Origin: an uncultured Muribaculaceae bacterium
Lineage (GTDB): Bacteria; Bacillota_I; Bacilli_A; RF39; UBA660
Direction: 5' to 3'
Assembly (NCBI GenBank): GCA_964513345.1
Contig: CAZELY010000001.1
Coordinates: 8,289-72,288 of the forward strand
DNA length: 64,000 nt
In this document: one piece after another, positions 7,042-42,517 of the stretch
How positions within the stretch are numbered: the first letter of the stretch is position 1
How the letters are laid out: every line of letters begins with the position of its first letter
The notes under the pieces: generated by a model
Database searches by the model: none
The model's input: the letters and a program-made list of their open reading frames with translations, nothing else
Told to the model about the DNA's origin: nothing
Position numbers and translations under genes: made by a program

Positions 7042-8703
7042 AATATCCATTATTACTGGAAGAATAATTGGTTTTCTTCCTATTTGACTACTAATATAAT
7101 TAGCAAGATTTAAACTAATTTCGGATTTAATATCCGTATAATTTATGTCAGTTTTTATGACTTTATTTATAGCTTCTTTACTAATTTCTTCTAATTTCTT
7201 AAGTAGTTCAATGTTTTCATTTACTTCGATAAATCCTCTGGTAATTATGCTAGGATTGTTTAAAAGAGTTTTATTAGTAGTATCGATATTGGCAATAACA
7301 ACGATAATACCATCATTGGACATTGTCTTACGATCTTTCATTACGGCGCCACTAACATCACCAATACGATTTCCATCAACAAATATATCACCAGCTGGTA
7401 TTTTACCACCACGTCTTACTTTACCATCTTTCATAATAAGAACATCACCATTTGATAAAACAAATGTGTTTTTCTTTGGCATACCACATAAAATAGCTAA
7501 ATCAGCATGCTTTTTAAGCATTCTATATTCACCATGAAAAGGCATAAAATAAGTTGGATTTATCAACCTTAACATAAGTTTTAATTCTTCTTCATTACCG
7601 TGACCAGAAGTATGAATATCACTTAGTGATGTAGTAGTATAAACAGTTACGCCTTTTAAATATAACTTGTTTATCGTTCTTGAAATACTAATGGCATTAC
7701 CTGGAATAGCTGAAGACGAAAATACTACAACATCATCCGGCATAACTTTTATTTGTCTAAATGATCCATCGGCGATTCTACTTAAAGCCGCAAGTGGCTC
7801 ACCTTGGGTACCAGTACAAAGTAAACATAGTTTCTCTGGTGGATAGTTTTTAACTTCTTCCGGATTAATAAATACATCACGGTGTTTGATATATCCACCC
7901 TCTATTGATATTTCAATATTATTCTTCATGCTTCTTCCGAAAACACATATTTTACGATCGTGCCTTTTACAAGTATCAACGATGTGTTTCAAACGATAAA
8001 TATTTGAAGCAAAAGTTGCAATTATAATACGACTATTGTGCTTGTTAAATAATTCCTCTAATGCTTCATCGACTTTTGATTCACTATTGCTAAAACCTTC
8101 ATTTAAAGCATTAGTACTATCACTTAACAAAAGCGTTACACCTTCATCACCAAGTCGAGCCATTTTATGAATATTAGCCATTGGACCAACTGGAGTTAAA
8201 TCAAATTTAAAATCGCCAGTTGTAATTACATTACCATTTGGTGTATGAATACACATTCCGTGTGAATCTGGAATAGAGTGAGTAGTCATAAAAAACTCCA
8301 CACTCAAATATTTAAATTTAAATATATCTTTTTCCGTATAAACATGTAAATTGTTGTATTTTATGCCACGATCTTCTAATTTTCTTCTAATAAGACCTGC
8401 TGCCTGATTAGGCGCATAAATAGCAGGTATATTAACCATTTGCAATAAAAATGGAATTGCCCCAATATGATCTTCGTGTCCGTGAGTAATAAAAAGCCCC
8501 TTAATTTTGCTTTCATTTTGTTTTAAAAATGTAAAATCTGGAATTACATAATCAATTCCCAGTAAATCTCCTTCTGGAAAAATAACTCCAGCATCAGATA
8601 TTACTATTTCATCTTTATGCATTACGCAATACATATTTTTTCCGACTTCACCAAGCCCGCCTAAAGCGAAAACTGCAGTTTCATCGGGTTTTAAAAAATC
8701 CAT
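7021..8703 (-). CDS. rnj: Ribonuclease J (metallo-beta-lactamase/beta-CASP)
   Basis: 560 aa. N-terminus FALGGLGEVGKNMY, HGHEDHIGA motif, typical length, GGAG RBS. Confidence 0.93.
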   Translation of the reverse strand: MDFLKPDETAVFALGGLGEVGKNMYCVMHKDEIVISDAGVIFPEGDLLGIDYVIPDFTFLKQNESKIKGLFITHGHEDHIGAIPFLLQMVNIPAIYAPNQAAGLIRRKLEDRGIKYNNLHVYTEKDIFKFKYLSVEFFMTTHSIPDSHGMCIHTPNGNVITTGDFKFDLTPVGPMANIHKMARLGDEGVTLLLSDSTNALNEGFSNSESKVDEALEELFNKHNSRIIIATFASNIYRLKHIVDTCKRHDRKICVFGRSMKNNIEISIEGGYIKHRDVFINPEEVKNYPPEKLCLLCTGTQGEPLAALSRIADGSFRQIKVMPDDVVVFSSSAIPGNAISISRTINKLYLKGVTVYTTTSLSDIHTSGHGNEEELKLMLRLINPTYFMPFHGEYRMLKKHADLAILCGMPKKNTFVLSNGDVLIMKDGKVRRGGKIPAGDIFVDGNRIGDVSGAVMKDRKTMSNDGIIVVIANIDTTNKTLLNNPSIITRGFIEVNENIELLKKLEEISKEAINKVIKTDINYTDIKSEISLNLANYISSQIGRKPIILPVIMDIKKSVKI

Positions 8704-29398: not shown

Positions 29399-30925
29399 AT
29401 GACAAAAATACTTAAAAACGTGAGCAAATTACTTGCTTGTACTTTAGTAGTTCTATTAACTTTTGTTCTAACATTATCAACGGCAACTGCTAAAGCACCA
29501 AACACCATAACAATTAAAGCGGCCGACTATACAAAGGATTTCTTAAACAACAATGACAATGCAATGTTTATGTATAAAACAACAGATGGAGTTACAGTAT
29601 ACTGCATGGATATTGATAAAAAACCAGTATTACAAGGACAAACAGCTAACTTAACTGGTGATGCCGATGCCGGTGTATTATACATTTTAAAAAATGGATA
29701 TCCAAACAAATCATACAGAAAGAATAATGGTATGGACGCTTACATTACGCAAATGGCTTTATGGTGGTATTTATCAGAATCTAAATTATCTGATAACTTT
29801 AAAAATGCATCTGCTGAAGTTGATAGTTACAGTTTAGTGCCAGCCGCAAGACAATTGAAAGATCTTGCTAAATCAGCTACTGCACCAGCTGAACCAAGCA
29901 TGACAGTAAGCGATGTTGCAAAAACTTTAACATTAACAAGTGATGGAAAATATTACGAATCAGCTTATATGAGCGCAACTACTAAGGTAGCTACAACATA
30001 TAATGTTGAATTAAGTGGTGCGACTAAAAGCACAGTTGTTGTCGATGAAGGAAACAGAATTGGAACAACTATGAATTCTGGTGAAAAATTTAAAGTTAGA
30101 GTACCAGCTGCTGAAGTAACTAAAGATTTAAAAATTGGTGTTAAATTTACAACAACTGCTTCAGTTGACAAAGCTAAAATTTATACACCTAGTGATAATA
30201 GTTATCAAAGAGTAGTGGGAATATTCCCAGAAACAAAAACACTTACAAAAGATGTTGAGTTAACATTAACTAAAAAAAGATCATGTGAATATGATAAAGA
30301 CACAAAAAAATACTATGGTAAAGATGGCTCAGAAGTAAACAAAGAAGAGTATCAAAAACAATGTGACCCTAGATCATGTGAATATGATAAGGACACAAAA
30401 AAATACTATGGTAAAGATGGTTCAGTAGTAACAAAAGACGAGTATACAAAACAATGTTTACATATTTGTGAATATACAGATAAAAAGTACTATGGTAAAA
30501 ATGGTACTGTAGTTACTAAAGAACAATTCAATAAAGAATGTAATAAATCATGTGAATATGATAAAGATGCCAAAAAATACTATGGTAAAGATGGCTCAGA
30601 AGTAACAAAAGAAGAATACAAAAAGCAATGTGAACACGTTTGTGAATTCTATGGTGGATCTTACTATGGTAAAGATGGTAAAAAAGTATCAGAAGCTCAA
30701 TTCGATAAAGATTGTAACAAACATGTGTGCGAATACATTGATGGCACTTATTATGGAAGTGAAGGAACTGCAGTTGATCAAAACACATATAATAATCAAT
30801 GTGGTGAAGAAGTAGTTGTTCCATCTACTGGTTCTAATGCTTCAGCATTAGCTATCATTCTAGGAACAATTATGACACTTGCTGGTGCATCTTTAATTGC
30901 TTATAGAAGAAAAACATTAGTTTAA
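29399..30925 (+). CDS. Surface adhesin with N-terminal thioester (TQXA-type) domain, six Cys-bounded repeats and a VPSTG cell-wall sorting signal
   Basis: Signal peptide ...STATA|KA. Y-C-M-D (Cys codon 29603-29605) and Y-I-T-Q-M-A-L-W-W (Gln codon 29750-29752) match the thioester-domain Cys and TQxA(I/L)W motifs. C-terminus is VPSTG plus a hydrophobic stretch plus RRK. Confidence 0.8.
   Translation: MTKILKNVSKLLACTLVVLLTFVLTLSTATAKAPNTITIKAADYTKDFLNNNDNAMFMYKTTDGVTVYCMDIDKKPVLQGQTANLTGDADAGVLYILKNGYPNKSYRKNNGMDAYITQMALWWYLSESKLSDNFKNASAEVDSYSLVPAARQLKDLAKSATAPAEPSMTVSDVAKTLTLTSDGKYYESAYMSATTKVATTYNVELSGATKSTVVVDEGNRIGTTMNSGEKFKVRVPAAEVTKDLKIGVKFTTTASVDKAKIYTPSDNSYQRVVGIFPETKTLTKDVELTLTKKRSCEYDKDTKKYYGKDGSEVNKEEYQKQCDPRSCEYDKDTKKYYGKDGSVVTKDEYTKQCLHICEYTDKKYYGKNGTVVTKEQFNKECNKSCEYDKDAKKYYGKDGSEVTKEEYKKQCEHVCEFYGGSYYGKDGKKVSEAQFDKDCNKHVCEYIDGTYYGSEGTAVDQNTYNNQCGEEVVVPSTGSNASALAIILGTIMTLAGASLIAYRRKTLV
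30284..30802 (+). repeat. Six tandem coding repeats, C-E-Y-x(2-5)-YYGKDG-x-x-V-x(3-4)-(Y/F)-x(2-3)-C
   Basis: Repeats of ~27-31 codons, each bounded by two Cys. The first two DNA units (30281-30372 and 30373-30462) are near-identical. Confidence 0.9.
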
Positions 30926-31046: not shown

Positions 31047-32393
31047 ATGATAAAGAAAAGTAAAAAACTACTTACTTTGATGTTCGCATTTGCTTTAGCA
31101 TTTGTATTTGGAATTAGTACATCACTTGCAGCTCCAGGCACAATAACAATAAAAGCTTCCGATTATACAAAGGATTTTTTGAATAGCGAACATAATAATG
31201 CCATGTTTATGTATAAAACAACAGATGGCGTTACTATTTACTGCATGGATATTGACAAAAAGCCGGTATTACAAGGGCAAACAGCTAATTTAACAGGTGA
31301 TGCCGATGCAGGAACACTGTATATCTTAAAAAATGGATATCCAAATAAATCGTATAGAAATAATAACGGAATGGACGCTTATATTACGCAAATGGCTTTA
31401 TGGTGGCATTTATCTGATGCCAAAGTATCTAACAATTTTAAAAATACACCAGCTGATCAAGATAAATACAGTTTAGTTTCAGCAACAAGACAATTAAAGG
31501 ATCTTGCTAAGAAAGCTACTGCACCTCAAGAACCAACTATGTCTGTAAACGAGGGAACTAAAGTTTTAACTTTGACATCTGATGGAAAATACTATGAATC
31601 ATCTTATATGAGTGCGACTGTAACTGGCACAAAGACTTATAATGTTGAATTAAGTGGTGCTACTAAAAATACTGTTATTGTCGACGAAGGAAACAATATT
31701 GGGGCAACTATGAATTCTGGCGAAAAGTTCAAAATAAGAATTCCGGTTGCTGAAGTAACTAAAGATTTAAAAATTGGTGTTAAATTTAATGCCACTGCTC
31801 GCGTGGAGAAGGCTAAAATTTACACGCCAAGTGACACTAGTTATCAAAGAGTAGTAGGAATTTTCCCAGAAGATAAAAATCTTGCAAAAAATGTTGAATT
31901 AACATTAACTAAAAAACGAGTTTGTGAGTACGATCAAACGACAAAAAAATATTATGGTAAAGATGGCTCAGAAGTAACTGAAGCACAATATAAAGAACAA
32001 TGTAAACACGTTTGTGAATATACTAACAATAAATACTATGGTAAAAACGGCACGGAAGTAACTAAAGAACAATTTAATAAAGAATGTAATAAATCTTGTG
32101 AATATGATCAAGAAAACAATACATATTATGGTAAAGATGGCTCTGTAGTAAAAAAAGAAGAATTTGAAAAACAATGTAAGCGTGTTTGTGAATACGTTGA
32201 TGGAATATATTATGGTAAAGATGGAACAGCTGTTGATCAAAATACATACAATTCACAATGCGGTGAAGAAGTAATTGTTCCGAGTACTGGTGCAAATTTC
32301 ATCTTATGGACAGTATTACTTGGTGTAATAGCTATTGCTGGAGGAACTGGTATTATCTTATATAGAGGTAATAAAGCACCAATAAAAAAATAG
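31047..32393 (+). CDS. Paralogous thioester-domain surface adhesin with four Cys-bounded repeats and a VPSTG sorting signal
   Basis: The N-terminal ~290 aa are highly similar to 29399..30925, including IYCMD and YITQMALWWH. C-terminus is VPSTG plus a hydrophobic stretch plus a basic tail. Confidence 0.8.
   Translation: MIKKSKKLLTLMFAFALAFVFGISTSLAAPGTITIKASDYTKDFLNSEHNNAMFMYKTTDGVTIYCMDIDKKPVLQGQTANLTGDADAGTLYILKNGYPNKSYRNNNGMDAYITQMALWWHLSDAKVSNNFKNTPADQDKYSLVSATRQLKDLAKKATAPQEPTMSVNEGTKVLTLTSDGKYYESSYMSATVTGTKTYNVELSGATKNTVIVDEGNNIGATMNSGEKFKIRIPVAEVTKDLKIGVKFNATARVEKAKIYTPSDTSYQRVVGIFPEDKNLAKNVELTLTKKRVCEYDQTTKKYYGKDGSEVTEAQYKEQCKHVCEYTNNKYYGKNGTEVTKEQFNKECNKSCEYDQENNTYYGKDGSVVKKEEFEKQCKRVCEYVDGIYYGKDGTAVDQNTYNSQCGEEVIVPSTGANFILWTVLLGVIAIAGGTGIILYRGNKAPIKK
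31923..32261 (+). repeat. Four tandem Cys-bounded coding repeats (same family as 30284..30802)
   Basis: CEYDQTTKKYYGKDGSEVTEAQYKEQC, CEYTNNKYYGKNGTEVTKEQFNKEC, CEYDQENNTYYGKDGSVVKKEEFEKQC, CEYVDGIYYGKDGTAVDQNTYNSQC. Confidence 0.9.
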
Positions 32394-32544: not shown

Positions 32545-33408
32545 ATGAAAAAAATTAAATTTATGAAAGATGCAAAAATCACGGGTTGTTATTTTTCACC
32601 ATCAATGATGGACATTATTCAAGAAAAAATTGAAAGTGCCAAAGGATTATGGTATAAACTAGGTGCAAAATATTCTTGCCTACCAACAGCTAAAGGAAAA
32701 ATGAGTGGCAACCAGGTAGTAGCAACTTGGTCAAATATTGCTGAACAATATGGGGCTAGAATTGTAGTGACTACTGCTTTGGCTGCACTTACAGGATACA
32801 CGGCTGTAGAATTATTGCAACCGGATCAAGCTTTTGCGGCCACCGTGGACGGAGTAGATCTTGGGGATGCTCAAGTTGTTGATGTATCTGATACTCCTGC
32901 AGCAACCGAAATAGCAGCATCAGCTGCTGCAGCTATTCCAGAGCAATCATTTGAACCAGGCATTGATGCAGAAACTGGTATCGAAAAAATTGATTTTTCG
33001 GATGTTGACTATCACGAAGGCAGCGACGGTAAACCAATCGTTGAATTTGATGGTGTTGATGAAAATGGTGATTTGAATTTTACTGCTTCTGATGAAGAAC
33101 TTAATGACATAATTACTGATAAAATGGGAGGCTTCAAAGAAGATAATAGACAGCCAGAGCCAACACCAGAGCCAGAGCCAACACCAGAACCAACACCGGA
33201 GCCAACACCAGAGCCAGAGCCAGCCGAGACTGTTGACTATGTTCCAGTAACACCGGGCCCTGGGTTAGGCGCTGCTGCAGTAGCTGCTGCGGGGGCAGGG
33301 CTTGCCGCTAAAAAACTTAGCAAAAATGATAGTCAGAATATGACGATGGCTATTTATGAAAATGCTGAATCAAGCTACGATTTTGAAGCCCATAGACCTA
33401 GAAAATAA
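32545..33408 (+). CDS. Exported protein with conserved ~60-aa domain, PEPT linker, VPVTPGPG motif, C-terminal TM anchor and short cytoplasmic tail
   Basis: Long N-terminal signal-like region. Block ETGIEKIDFSDVDYHEGSDGKPIVEFDGVDENGDLNFTASDEELN is shared with 33543..34295. (PEPT)n linker. Ala/Gly-rich TM helix followed by KKLSK and ~30 more residues. Confidence 0.6.
   Translation: MKKIKFMKDAKITGCYFSPSMMDIIQEKIESAKGLWYKLGAKYSCLPTAKGKMSGNQVVATWSNIAEQYGARIVVTTALAALTGYTAVELLQPDQAFAATVDGVDLGDAQVVDVSDTPAATEIAASAAAAIPEQSFEPGIDAETGIEKIDFSDVDYHEGSDGKPIVEFDGVDENGDLNFTASDEELNDIITDKMGGFKEDNRQPEPTPEPEPTPEPTPEPTPEPEPAETVDYVPVTPGPGLGAAAVAAAGAGLAAKKLSKNDSQNMTMAIYENAESSYDFEAHRPRK
33154..33222 (+). repeat. Coding micro-repeat (CCA GAG CCA ACA)n encoding PEPTPEPEPTPEPTPEPTPEPEP
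   Basis: Direct reading of 23 codons of Pro/Glu/Thr. Confidence 0.9.
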
Positions 33409-33475: not shown

Positions 33476-33542
33476 AACCGCCGTATGAAGGGGGATTTAC
33501 TATAAAAAGGGAATTTTCTTTCACAAAAAGGAGGTTTTGAAA

Positions 33543-34295
33543 ATGAGATTTAAACTTGTAACACAAAACTTATTTAATAATGCTGTTGATGTTATTTCGA
33601 CAAAAGGTAAAAGTATTGTGAGAAATGCAGGAAAAATTACCGCTGCTTTTGGTATTACTTTTGCATTGATGGGTGGCATGGGTGCTGTTCAAGCATATGC
33701 TAATGAATCAGACACTAATACTAATAATGATACTCCAGCTAAGATTGAAAATAGTGATGCATCTATGAATAATGTTGATGGTATAGCTGTTGAAGGAACG
33801 GTTGTTAATGTGGAAGATGCTGGTGCAAATTCAAAAGGTTCTAATGAATCTGCTGGAAAAACTATTGACGAAGAAACTGGTATTGAAATTATTGACTATT
33901 CAGACGTTGATTACCACGCAGGTAATGATGGTAAACCGATCGTTGAATTTGATGGTGTTGACGAAAATGGAGATTTGAATTTCACTGCTTCTGATGATGA
34001 ACTTAATAAAATTATTGATGAAAAAATGGGTGGATTTAAAGCTGATAATAGACAGCCAGATCCAGAACCGACACCAGACCCAGAACCAACACCAGATCCA
34101 GAACCAACACCAACTGTTGATTATGTCCCAGTAACACCTGGTCCTGGTTTTGCTTTTGTTGCTCTTAGTGGTTTAGCAGGTGGTGCATTAGCTACTAGAA
34201 AAAAATTAAGCAAAGTAGCAAGTCAAAAAAATCGTTTAGCTATCTACGAAACACCTAATTATGATTTCGAAGATTATAAAAGCTTTATTCGATAA
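33543..34295 (+). CDS. Paralog of 32545..33408 (conserved domain, PDPEPT linker, VPVTPGPG, TM anchor, cytoplasmic tail)
   Basis: ATG 33543 lies 8 nt after AAGGAGG (track start TTG 33537 is too close to the RBS). Signal peptide ...AVQAYA|NE. Same conserved block and same C-terminal architecture. Confidence 0.6.
   Translation: MRFKLVTQNLFNNAVDVISTKGKSIVRNAGKITAAFGITFALMGGMGAVQAYANESDTNTNNDTPAKIENSDASMNNVDGIAVEGTVVNVEDAGANSKGSNESAGKTIDEETGIEIIDYSDVDYHAGNDGKPIVEFDGVDENGDLNFTASDDELNKIIDEKMGGFKADNRQPDPEPTPDPEPTPDPEPTPTVDYVPVTPGPGFAFVALSGLAGGALATRKKLSKVASQKNRLAIYETPNYDFEDYKSFIR
34056..34112 (+). repeat. Coding micro-repeat encoding PDPEPTPDPEPTPDPEPTP
   Basis: Direct reading. Confidence 0.9.
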
Positions 34296-34384: not shown

Positions 34385-34454
34385 ACATATGTATAAGGTA
34401 GATTATCTTAAAATGTTTTTGTATTGTATTTACAAATAAAAAGAGGTGATAATT

Positions 34455-36281
34455 ATGAGTCGAAGCAGTGACATGGCAAGCGAATTTGTTGAAAACTTTG
34501 ATTTAGAAACTGATTTTAGTGAAGTAGAACTTGCTACCGCGGGCGATAGAGAACATATCCCTGCAACGGCTAGAATGCAGGGTAGTAAAAGCACAAAGCA
34601 AAATGGGACTATAACAAGCGATTCTACTGAAGAAGCACAATATGAAGTTGATAGATTAATTGAAGAAGAAATTGCCAGAGGGCTAAAATTTAATGATTTT
34701 TTTAAAAAATATTTTGGGCATGATTACAACGAGAGAAGCTATGATCCTGAAACACAATCTCAAGTCGATACATTATTTGCTTCATTGCACGAGCAAATTG
34801 AAAAAGAAGGTACTATAACCGACACCACCGCTTTGGATCAATTGATCCAAATTGAAACAGAACATAAAGCAAATATGCGTGTAGCAAATGTGTTTAACTT
34901 ATTTGAAACCTTGGAACAAAGGCCTTTAACCACTGAAGAGTTTAATAAATTGATGACATTAGCTAGCGAAATGAATCGTGATGTCCTTATTGAAAATACA
35001 ATCAACATGGGGCGTGAAATACATCGTTCAAATATCATTAAATTAGAAAAAATGAAAGAAGGCAAAGTTTTTGCCATATTCAAACCAGTTGTAACTAAAT
35101 TAACTAAAGTATTTGGATTAAAAAAAGACAATGTTGGTGATGATTTAGAGAAGGTTATTGAAACGATTGATGAGCAGGCAGAAACAAAAACTGGTCAAGG
35201 ATTATCAAAACTTACAGACGCTAAAATGATGTTGCTAGATAGTATAGCAGACAGTAATTTTGATGCTATTGCTGAAACGATTGATAATGAATCATTTGCT
35301 GAACGTGCTAATATAATGGTAGCCGACTTTGAAAAGTGGCAGGAGGCAGAGGCAACCAATTTTGCTAACATTCATCTATATGGATGCTATAACATAGAAG
35401 ACTTACAAGAATGCGAAAATGCTTGGTCACAATTTTTTAGTTCTTTTGTTGAAAGAGTGGTTTTGCAGCAAACAATGCATCTAAAAAACGCTAGTTTGCA
35501 AGCCAAAGAATATTTAAAAGAAGTACGTGAAGATGGGGCAATGGTATGTGAAATCGATGGTCAAACAATAGTAATTACAAAGGATAATTTTGTTGACGAC
35601 ATGGCTGTTTTCTATCAGGCAGCAAACGGATTTGAGGTTGATTTATCACAATTAAGTCCGGCTGCAGAATCTGAATCAACGATTGAAATGCCGGAAGTTG
35701 TAGAGACTCCAGAAGTAGAAACAACTGAAACTGCCGAAGTAGTAGAAGAGCCAAAAGAAGAAGAGGTAGAGGAAACTACTGAAGAAAAAACAGAAGAAAC
35801 AAGTGAAGAACCTCAAAATACTGAAGAAGTAGTTGAAACAAAGATTGAGGAAGAACAAGCACGTGAAAATCTCAAAAATCTTCCAGAAATTGACATAAAT
35901 GAATATGTTGATAATACTGAAGAAGAAATAAAACCAGAAGTTGTTTACGAAGAATCAGCGGACATGGGATATGATCCAATCAAATCTGATCGTGATGCTT
36001 ATCTTGCAGTTGTGTCATTATTTATGTCACGTGAAGAAGCGGAGGAATATGCAAATATTCAGGAAAACATAGATGCCTTTAATAATTCAGACCTTGGATA
36101 TACAAAGTTCCTTGAGGCTAAGGAAAAAGGCGAGATTAGTGAAGATACTCTTTACTATGACTTTGGTATTGCGCAACTTGAAAAAAGAAACGCAATGGAA
36201 GAATCGTCAACAAGTCTTGAAGATGAGCTAGATGCAGTCGATATGACTTTAGACGAACCAGAAACATCGAAAACAAAATAA
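34455..36281 (+). CDS. Very acidic 608-aa protein without signal peptide, unknown function
   Basis: ATG 34455 follows AGAGGTGA. Asp/Glu-rich throughout, with an E/T/V/P-rich low-complexity stretch (EVVETPEVETTETAEVVEEPKEEEVEETTEEKTEETSEEP). No TM helix or known motif recognised. Confidence 0.6.
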   Translation: MSRSSDMASEFVENFDLETDFSEVELATAGDREHIPATARMQGSKSTKQNGTITSDSTEEAQYEVDRLIEEEIARGLKFNDFFKKYFGHDYNERSYDPETQSQVDTLFASLHEQIEKEGTITDTTALDQLIQIETEHKANMRVANVFNLFETLEQRPLTTEEFNKLMTLASEMNRDVLIENTINMGREIHRSNIIKLEKMKEGKVFAIFKPVVTKLTKVFGLKKDNVGDDLEKVIETIDEQAETKTGQGLSKLTDAKMMLLDSIADSNFDAIAETIDNESFAERANIMVADFEKWQEAEATNFANIHLYGCYNIEDLQECENAWSQFFSSFVERVVLQQTMHLKNASLQAKEYLKEVREDGAMVCEIDGQTIVITKDNFVDDMAVFYQAANGFEVDLSQLSPAAESESTIEMPEVVETPEVETTETAEVVEEPKEEEVEETTEEKTEETSEEPQNTEEVVETKIEEEQARENLKNLPEIDINEYVDNTEEEIKPEVVYEESADMGYDPIKSDRDAYLAVVSLFMSREEAEEYANIQENIDAFNNSDLGYTKFLEAKEKGEISEDTLYYDFGIAQLEKRNAMEESSTSLEDELDAVDMTLDEPETSKTK

Positions 36282-41409: not shown

Positions 41410-41428
41410 ATGAAAAGAGGTGATTGGC

Positions 41429-42517
41429 ATGTTTCATAGAATTGATCCAAAAACAGGGAAGCCGATTTTAAACGAGAGCGGCATAAAAAAGGTAAGTGTT
41501 CAAATACCAAATGTCGTACCAATTGAAAAACCAATCGAGCAATCAAATAGTGTAGAACAACCGGAACCTAATGTCATAGCTGAAGATGAAATTATTGAAC
41601 CAATAAAAACGGTTGAAGAGGAAAAGAAACAAAAAACAGAACCGGCAAAACCTTTGAAAACGCAATCATTTGCAGGCATGAAAAAACTAAATTTTGCCAA
41701 GAAAAAATTACAACGTGAAAATAGATTTAAAAAAGCATTGATTGCTTTAAGAATTGTTCTGGCGATGGCGGTAACAGCTGCAGGCGCTGCCGTTGGTATT
41801 AATGCTTACATCAATCATTCGTTTTCTTCAACACCTTCGATTACTCATGTTATTGATAAACAGATTGATGATGTTGAAGAATATATTGATGCAAAAGATA
41901 TTGAATTTAAATCAGATATTCCGATGGGTGAATGTGAAGTTGAGTTTTCTGGTGATATTGTCGGATATATTTATGATGACAATGGCGTTTTTGCGCAAGC
42001 GTATCCGATCGCCCAAGGTTCATCAGAAAATCCTAATTTCTATTTAGATCATGGCGTTGATGGCGAATGGAATCCGATTGGCGTGCCTTATATTGATGCC
42101 AATTGTAATCTCGATCATGAGGGTGATTTTACAATAATATACGGACATCATTGTTATGGCAACCAAGTTTTTGGTGGTTTAACTGATGCTGGTGACACAC
42201 CATATTACATCGAAGATCAATATGGCGTTTGGAAACTAACTCCATGTGCCTCTGGCGTTTATAATGGCAAGGAAATGCTTACGAACCTATTATATGGTGA
42301 TGAGCAAGAAGCCCTTGATTATATTAAGGCAGGGTCAACGCTTGAAACTGACAATCAATTTGATCCTAGTCATCGTAAGGTTGTTTTGATGACTTGTCAA
42401 TATTCTGATGTTGCCCCAGGTGAAGAGAGACATTTTACCGTTTTAGACGAGGAAGAAGTGCTTATGTATAAACCGACACCATCTCAATTGCAGGCACAAC
42501 AAGGAAGAACTATGTAA
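41429..42517 (+). CDS. Sortase (class B-like) with ~100-aa cytoplasmic N-terminal extension
   Basis: ATG 41429 follows AAGAGGTGA. TM helix ALIALRIVLAMAVTAAGAAVGINAYI. NPNFYLDH, TIIYGHH (His), VVLMTCQY (TLxTC-like catalytic Cys) and ERHFTV (Arg) motifs. Confidence 0.75.
   Translation: MFHRIDPKTGKPILNESGIKKVSVQIPNVVPIEKPIEQSNSVEQPEPNVIAEDEIIEPIKTVEEEKKQKTEPAKPLKTQSFAGMKKLNFAKKKLQRENRFKKALIALRIVLAMAVTAAGAAVGINAYINHSFSSTPSITHVIDKQIDDVEEYIDAKDIEFKSDIPMGECEVEFSGDIVGYIYDDNGVFAQAYPIAQGSSENPNFYLDHGVDGEWNPIGVPYIDANCNLDHEGDFTIIYGHHCYGNQVFGGLTDAGDTPYYIEDQYGVWKLTPCASGVYNGKEMLTNLLYGDEQEALDYIKAGSTLETDNQFDPSHRKVVLMTCQYSDVAPGEERHFTVLDEEEVLMYKPTPSQLQAQQGRTM

Follow-up and report, generated by a model that had tools for sequence, protein, structure and literature searches.

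The window examined here is a stretch of 64,000 nucleotides (nt) from an uncultured Muribaculaceae bacterium (GTDB lineage Bacteria; Bacillota_I; Bacilli_A; RF39; UBA660), taken from positions 8,289 to 72,288 of contig CAZELY010000001.1 in assembly GCA_964513345.1. It contains two neighboring genes, here called A and B, which are tandem paralogs with N-terminal regions that are 80% identical. The predicted products of both carry, between the N-terminal head and a C-terminal sorting signal, a tandem array of a short repeat with a cysteine at either end, which we refer to as the Cys-unit. The features of the two genes are as follows, with lengths in amino acids (aa) and the sources of each assignment in brackets.

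29399..30925, + strand: gene A, encoding a predicted 508-aa class II thioester-domain adhesin, sortase-anchored, with a probable six-unit stalk (open reading frame (ORF); Pfam; AlphaFold2 (AF2); Foldseek)
29399..29497, + strand: signal peptide of A, about aa 1-33, ending AKA (sequence; putative cleavage site)
29498..30274, + strand: predicted class II thioester domain (TED) of A with inserted beta-sandwich, aa ~34-292 (AF2, phmmer, Foldseek, motifs)
29603-29605, + strand: predicted thioester Cys69 of A in YCMD (motif; partner Gln118 in TQMALW)
30284..30802, + strand: Cys-unit array of A, six units of 27, 27, 25, 27, 25 and 25 aa with 3-4-aa linkers
30284-30364, + strand: A unit 1, aa 296-322
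30377-30457, + strand: A unit 2, aa 327-353
30467-30541, + strand: A unit 3, aa 357-381
30551-30631, + strand: A unit 4, aa 385-411
30641-30715, + strand: A unit 5, aa 415-439
30728-30802, + strand: A unit 6, aa 444-468
30818..30922, + strand: sorting signal of A, with VPSTG (30818-30832), a hydrophobic helix and the basic tail YRRKTLV
31047..32393, + strand: gene B, encoding a 448-aa paralog of A with a probable four-unit stalk (ORF, Pfam, head comparison)
31923..32261, + strand: Cys-unit array of B, four units of 27, 25, 27 and 25 aa
31923-32003, 32013-32087, 32097-32177 and 32187-32261, + strand: B units 1-4
32277..32291, + strand: VPSTG sorting motif of B (sequence; weak anchor matches)

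Both A and B match the Pfam TED family and an LPXTG-type anchor, and the NCBIfam models agree. In B as in A, VPSTG is followed by a hydrophobic helix and a basic tail. The TED match in A has an E-value of 1.5e-11 (45.1 bits against a cut-off of 22), and its anchor scores 20.5 bits with Gram_pos_anchor (cut-off 20) and 19.7 bits with TIGR01167 (cut-off 15.9), while the anchor of B falls under both cut-offs. A weak match to TIGR03934 TQXA_dom (19.9 bits) lies under the cut-off of that model, and neither protein has a Pfam match to Cna_B, SpaA or TQ. The AF2 model of full-length A, generated with 54 full-length homologs, has a mean predicted local distance difference test score (pLDDT) of 83.9, rising above 90 over most of the head (aa ~60-290). 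The signal region is modeled as a helix (aa 2-26) with a low-confidence segment at 24-30, and an all-beta region at aa ~167-290 corresponds to the insert of a class II TED. Using Foldseek the head of A matches the TIE proteins BaTIE (6FWV, 5e-16) and EfmTIE86 (6FWY, 2e-14), with class I TEDs at just ~1e-4, and a phmmer search of the PDB finds 6fwv at 7.9e-9 over aa 57-253. We took the motif definitions of class II TEDs from the literature (PMC6194298). The [YFL]-C-hydrophobic-hydrophilic motif is present as VYCMD in A (C69) and IYCMD in B (C66), and the TQxx-hydrophobic-W motif as ITQMALWW in both. C69 is invariant across the 54 homologs, A120 and W122 are kept in at least 90% of homologs, and VPxTG is conserved among homologs. 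Three Pfam-valid sortases are encoded elsewhere in the same genome. The TED fold match, the YCMD and TQMALW motifs and the VPSTG signal together indicate, by sequence and model, that A and B are sortase-anchored class II thioester adhesins. The whole of the segment between TED and anchor is occupied by the Cys-unit array.

The units were located by a regular-expression read of the translations. An earlier note on this DNA had counted six copies in A and four in B, at 30284-30802 and 31923-32261, and these coordinates proved to be exact. Its description of a unit with two Cys, one at either end, holds for all ten units, which are 27 or 25 aa long and have Cys at the first and last positions exclusively. 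The linkers that it listed (DPRS, LHI, NKS, EHV and NKHV) are all found in A; those of B are KHV, NKS and KRV. Outside the arrays each mature protein has a single Cys, the predicted thioester Cys (C69 in A, C66 in B).

A hidden Markov model built from the ten units, a step suggested in the earlier note, has 25 states and recovers 1,285 units from 249 related proteins, so that the repeat is far beyond chance. A word-indexed search with the repeat region returned 208 proteins with 2-13 units each and several different N-terminal domains, and a profile run exhaustively against 1.84 billion representative proteins gave 371 at E≤1e-3, of them 124 at E≤1e-30. From 654 distinct units we derived the consensus C-x-[IVY]-x-[DNG]-[GDN]-K-Y-[YF]-G-K-[DN]-G-x-[EV]-V-[TDS]-x-x-x-[YF]-x-x-[EQ]-C. 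Among the units with a recognizable core in the 249 proteins searched, both Cys are kept in 1,228 of 1,235 (99.4%). In 98% of units the spacing from aromatic to Cys2 is 17, and a unit length of 25 aa is found in 86%, with linkers of 1-17 aa, which is the combination of invariant Cys, fixed spacing and variable linkers proposed for a C-x23-C family. The 27-aa form, which makes up half of the units in A and B yet is rare in the family (34/1,228), has a longer hairpin turn. The arrays of A, B and the inspected homologs end in a Cys at both sides.

The distribution of the repeat is narrow. In a sample of 61 genomes of relatives it is present in 17 of 37 genomes of the same genus and in 0 of 24 genomes of other families. 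Across the order it occurs in 71 of 301 genomes and 32 of 127 genera, and the matches listed are all within one family. A sample of the phylum gave 4 of 399 genomes, all four from the family to which the source genome belongs. The Cys-unit is a genuine family, restricted to a single lineage. Its hosts have small genomes of 0.7-1.5 Mb, and the source genome itself is 0.886 Mb, 84% complete and ~30% GC.

To describe the fold we used two AF2 runs, that of full-length A and one of a three-unit fragment with 70 fragment sequences. The same pattern, EEE--EEE-----EE-HHHHHHHH, was predicted for all units in both runs, with strand 1 at positions 2-4, strand 2 at 7-9, a short strand 3 at 15-16 and a helix at 18-25 that reaches Cys2. 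The three-repeat prediction, also suggested in the earlier note, thus gives a folded mini-domain, with pLDDT of 71-90 across the two alignments (fragment mean 82.8; units in the full-length model 71-87). Direct coupling analysis (DCA) of 1,223 distinct units (effective number 877) identified a K7-E15 coupling that would link strands 2 and 3 by a salt bridge, a T/S17-E20 coupling alternating with D17-T20 that would be a helix capping box, and a K11-E24 coupling that swaps to D/N11-K/A24. These couplings are physically sensible and support the predicted fold. Couplings of invariant columns (1-25, 1-13 etc.) were pseudocount artefacts and were not used.

The earlier note had called the repeat unrecognised and had named a match to an existing Pfam or InterPro family as what would refute this; no such match turned up. 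When A, B and ten diverse homologs were searched, no Pfam-A or NCBIfam model was found for the unit, and candidate families on the repeats (KOW, Toxin_2, TBPIP_C, YoaP and EF_EFCAB10_C) were rejected as spurious low-score matches. Pre-computed Pfam annotation from a newer release gives nearly all members either nothing, TED or spurious families. The family PF27401 is pre-computed on three homologs alone (P0002, P0004 and P0011, with 11-12 units); we rejected it as a general model of the repeat, as most family members, A included, have no pre-computed PF27401 match, and we found no paper that mentions it. No sequence or profile relative covering the repeats was found in the PDB, and a full-text literature search for the core motif strings returned no relevant paper. 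We conclude that the Cys-unit is a genuine, undescribed stalk module inside a known kind of protein, that of the fibrillar-adhesin and TIE theme, and not a new kind of system.

A resemblance to choline-binding repeats had been remarked on, and it raises the alternative that the units are ligand- or wall-binding repeats, distant cousins of CW_binding_1, that bind wall polymer or host glycan through conserved Tyr and are not an inert stalk. The core xYYGxDGxxV does resemble the WYYfxxxGxm hairpin of cell-wall-binding repeats, and each 25-aa unit has three conserved aromatics. The CW_binding_1 repeats (PF01473; CbpL 4CNL, LytB 7PL2) are likewise short tandem repeats (~20-25 aa) that contain a beta-hairpin rich in aromatics and a conserved Gly, and the top Foldseek matches of the three-unit model are the choline-binding modules 4cnl and 7pl2, although these matches are non-significant (E 0.6). 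Set against this, no match to PF01473/Choline_bind was found at E≤1 in A and B or at E≤0.1 in the ten homologs, and the Cys-units are not predicted to form the beta-hairpin solenoid of choline-binding repeats. The resemblance extends to the hairpin motif and to nothing beyond it, and we consider binding an unlikely function for the array.

Several patterns point to pairing of the two Cys within a unit. The intra-unit spacing is fixed and the linkers vary from 1 to 17 aa, which fits intra-unit pairing and not pairing across junctions. Among 1,275 units of 25 aa, nine have extra Cys at both position 3 and position 8 and none has one at just one of the two, and in the predicted hairpin these positions are cross-strand partners. 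Position 24 is coupled to positions 10-11, which lie beside Cys1 by the hairpin register, consistent with Cys1 and Cys25 being within bonding range. From the Cys invariance, the fixed spacing against variable linkers, the paired extra Cys and the covariation we infer that a Cys1-Cys2 intra-unit disulfide most likely forms. The paired extra Cys belong to the metagenomic homologs P0058 and P0156, where four-Cys variant units (C-x-C-x4-C-Y...C) and the usual two-Cys units follow each other in turn; in the former a second disulfide, between the strands, is presumably present.

The number of units differs among related adhesins. At the syntenic secDF-relA-dtd ... hisS locus of a related metagenome-assembled genome (CAUERX010000005.1) there are, at positions 5971-8341 of the locus, two TED paralogs with 2 and 0 units, and in the unit-less paralog the beta-sandwich runs almost directly into a VPNTS signal. 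Close orthologs (≥55% head identity) form a 4-unit class of 441-450 aa and a 6-unit class of 498-502 aa, with two exceptions of 406 and 425 aa that are probably truncated entries, and distant relatives have 3-13 units. With 0, 2, 4 or 6 units among orthologous adhesins the array behaves as a spacer, and we infer a mechanical role in which the units are spacers rather than binders. The array is also found in other settings, between SpaA (prealbumin-like) stalk domains in the homolog P0089 and between an N-terminal membrane-anchor region and a C-terminal domain in P0024.

We therefore think it probable that, in a class II thioester adhesin anchored by sortase, the array is the stalk on the wall-proximal side, a string of disulfide-closed mini-domains that holds the head off the anchor. 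In such a stalk the units, each of which has a hairpin followed by a short third strand and then an alpha-helix of 8 residues, would be joined by the 3-4-residue linkers into a string, and the Cys1-Cys2 disulfide would tie the N- and C-termini of each unit together. The array would hold the thioester head off the anchoring point, with reach set by the number of units (A, six; B, four). Provided that the disulfides form, a pull on the tether would run from linker through S-S to linker and bypass the small fold. Such a stalk would resist unraveling and digestion, which is the job of the CnaB isopeptide domains in known TIE proteins.

A difference in copy number could also mean that the array is a contingency locus, in which near-identical DNA units slip or recombine and stalk length varies in populations as it does in Periscope proteins. 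Tandem Repeats Finder reports periods of 93 (score 376) and 174 (score 430) in A and a period of 90 (score 278) in B. Units A1, A2 and A4 are mutually 86-90% identical in DNA (A1/A2 90%, A1/A4 88%). The longest exact direct repeat among them, and in the whole array, is of 34 nt (units 1 and 4, at 30305 and 30572), and copy number is 6 versus 4 between the paralogs and 0-13 between species. At 90% identity, to call the first two DNA units near-identical, as had been done, was an overstatement, and identity drops to 54-76% for the remaining pairs of units in A. Between A and B the closest units are A3-B2 (85%) and A6-B4 (77%), and A5 has no close partner. Each 90%-identity cluster has one full-length size (508 aa for A, 448 aa for B; one 128-aa B entry looks fragmentary), and the identical 508-aa protein with the 448-aa neighbor downstream was found in at least five independent metagenome samples, in a look-up by identity among short-read assemblies that can hide length variants. 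Together with the restriction of close orthologs to the 4-unit and 6-unit classes, this gives no sign of the slippage-driven polymorphism that had been suggested. Copy number within the species looks stable, and a contingency locus is very improbable.

In Gram-positive adhesins the stalk is locked within Ig-like domains of ~90 or more residues, by isopeptide or ester bonds or by disulfides, the last mostly in Actinobacteria. Tiny disulfide-locked extracellular spacers are likewise found in the tandem stalks of eukaryotic EGF-like modules, which have three or more disulfides against the one presumed here to link the termini, and which are not known to have any sequence or fold relationship to the Cys-unit. 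If true, a 25-residue module with one end-to-end disulfide would be smaller than any other building block of stalks known to us. The general principle of locking an adhesin stalk covalently is itself familiar. The extent of other covalent intramolecular bonds in stalks is, according to a survey, not known (PMC12617251).

The closest known systems are the TIE proteins (BaTIE of Bacillus anthracis and EfmTIE86; Miller et al. 2018, PMC6194298), with which A and B share a signal peptide, a distal class II TED with a beta-sandwich insert, a stalk and a C-terminal sortase signal. Known class II TIE proteins have 3-5 CnaB isopeptide domains, and sometimes ester domains, at the stalk position (PMC6194298), and so the earlier description of the array as an alternative to isopeptide stalk domains is a fair one. 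The stalk domains of TIE proteins are ~90 aa or more each, whereas those of A and B are Cys-bracketed mini-domains of 25-27 aa, and the sorting motif is VPxTG where theirs is LPxTG. A and B also resemble fibrillar adhesins and Periscope proteins (PMC8286594, PMC8201768) in having an adhesive head on a tandem-repeat stalk beside a wall anchor, and in a repeat number that differs between paralogs and species. The stalks of those proteins are tandem Rib, SHIRT, G5, CnaB and similar domains (PMC8286594, PMC8201768); the Cys-unit is 3-4 times smaller, has a presumed disulfide and falls outside the described stalk families. Whereas Periscope stalks have highly identical DNA repeats, identity between the units of A runs from 54 to 90%, and no length variation was seen within the species, as judged from clusters and short-read assemblies.

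Several results weigh against a disulfide-closed stalk. Of 41 genomes of the genus, none has DsbA above cut-off, and DsbB and VKOR were likewise found in 0 of 41; in the source genome no Thioredoxin_4 was found. The habitat is probably the anaerobic gut, and the sample labels suggest, on our reading of them, digestive-tract metagenomes. Aerobic Firmicutes exclude Cys from their exported proteins (PMC2823432). The nine units with paired extra Cys come from two proteins and so represent few independent events, perhaps one or two. The predicted template modeling score of the three-unit model is just 0.48, which leaves the relative orientation of the units, and hence the rigidity of a rod, uncertain. 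Finally, a thioredoxin-like protein with a CPHC motif, described below, was considered as a repeat-linked oxidase and rejected, as its distribution over 301 genomes is not correlated with that of the repeat. The folded mini-domain and the stalk position of the disulfide-closed stalk envisaged in the earlier note are borne out, while its disulfide is likely, in a genus that lacks DsbA, DsbB and VKOR.

These results bear on a third alternative, that the Cys are reduced in vivo, or that the pair at each junction (CxxxC/CxxxxC, often with a linker His) binds metal, giving a metal-stiffened or redox-responsive tether. It would agree with the missing enzymes and the probably anaerobic habitat, and His is frequent in the linkers (LHI, EHV, NKHV and KHV, and KH-x in many homologs). 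Linker length, however, varies between 1 and 17 aa, His is absent from many linkers (LKI, LPI, FPS, NKS, PT-rich), and two Cys per unit are too few for a Cys4 or Cys2His2 site. Under a junction scheme the terminal Cys kept in the inspected arrays would be unpaired. Where extra Cys have arisen they are always a cross-strand pair, as is usual for disulfides, and a 25-aa fold would be marginally stable without a cross-link or metal. Given the variable linkers, the kept terminal Cys and the shortage of ligands, we rejected inter-unit Cys pairing or metal sites as the principal reading, and regard reduced or metal-bound Cys as quite improbable. All three alternatives are less likely than a disulfide-stapled stalk.

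The Cys content of the source genome was compared using a crude classification from ORFs and signal peptides, and is 1.0% in exported-like against 1.0% in cytoplasmic proteins. This lack of Cys depletion in exported proteins is unusual for Firmicutes-type bacteria. Many exported-like proteins of the genome are Cys-rich, and include pilin-like proteins with 12-20 Cys. The latter are large type IV pilin-like proteins with an N-terminal GFTLIE, encoded at C1:13333-15301 (window 5045-7013), C1:4325-7394 and C10:6304-12327. Outside the window, C2:28996-32302 encodes a 1,101-aa exported-like protein with 52 Cys, in which two degenerate copies of the Cys-unit (E 9.6e-7) lie amid segments like CPPPGCPNPGC.

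The genome also encodes three membrane-anchored or lipoprotein thioredoxin-like CxxC proteins (CPHC, CGYC and CSAC), with Pfam matches just under cut-offs. They lie outside the window at the following positions.

C29:237-801: thioredoxin-like CxxC protein
C13:8380-9238: thioredoxin-like CxxC protein
C17:10462-10888: thioredoxin-like CxxC protein

By their sequences these three are candidates for extracytoplasmic thiol-disulfide oxidoreductases. Across the order, 120 of 301 genomes have a homolog of the CPHC protein, in each case a weak one, and several genomes of the same genus have the repeat and no detectable CPHC homolog. The disulfide staple is accordingly one that sequence and model suggest is likely. 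If it forms, the lineage, with no DsbA, DsbB or VKOR and no depletion of exported Cys, would need an unrecognised oxidative folding route.

A broader proposal can be put forward tentatively, and we hold it to be possible but on balance doubtful. An undescribed disulfide-stapled C-x23-C mini-domain could serve as the general inextensible surface stalk of one small-genome (0.7-1.5 Mb) family of gut Bacilli, replacing isopeptide and ester domains, with an unrecognised extracytoplasmic oxidative folding route that perhaps acts via fast-evolving, membrane-anchored thioredoxin-like CxxC proteins. If true, the stalk would solve in a new way the mechanical problem that other adhesin stalks face, and would be an exception to the exclusion of exported Cys in Firmicutes (PMC2823432). 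A Cys-dependent surface module in genomes without the disulfide enzymes searched for would point to unexplored oxidative folding in a common uncultured gut lineage. The Cys-unit merits a Pfam/InterPro model, by which several hundred unannotated surface proteins would gain a domain, and it could serve protein engineering as a compact, genetically encodable rigid spacer.

Further along the window, on the + strand, lies a gene for a possible partner of the VPxTG signals.

41420..42517, + strand: divergent SrtB-like protein with a long N-terminal extension (TIGR03064, 8e-11, 41.7 bits)

The score of 41.7 bits is far under the 153.75-bit cut-off of the model, and the Pfam Sortase match has an E-value of 0.086. 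The N-terminal extension is of ~100 aa before the membrane helix. From its sequence the protein is a possible candidate for the sortase that acts on A and B.

The island that contains A and B ends in a gene at 34446-36281 for a very acidic protein of 611 aa, with no Pfam family at E≤0.1. Between B and this gene, 32545-33408 and 33537-34295 encode anchored proteins that belong to no Pfam family and have a (PEPT)n low-complexity linker as spacer, so that two spacer solutions are present within one island.

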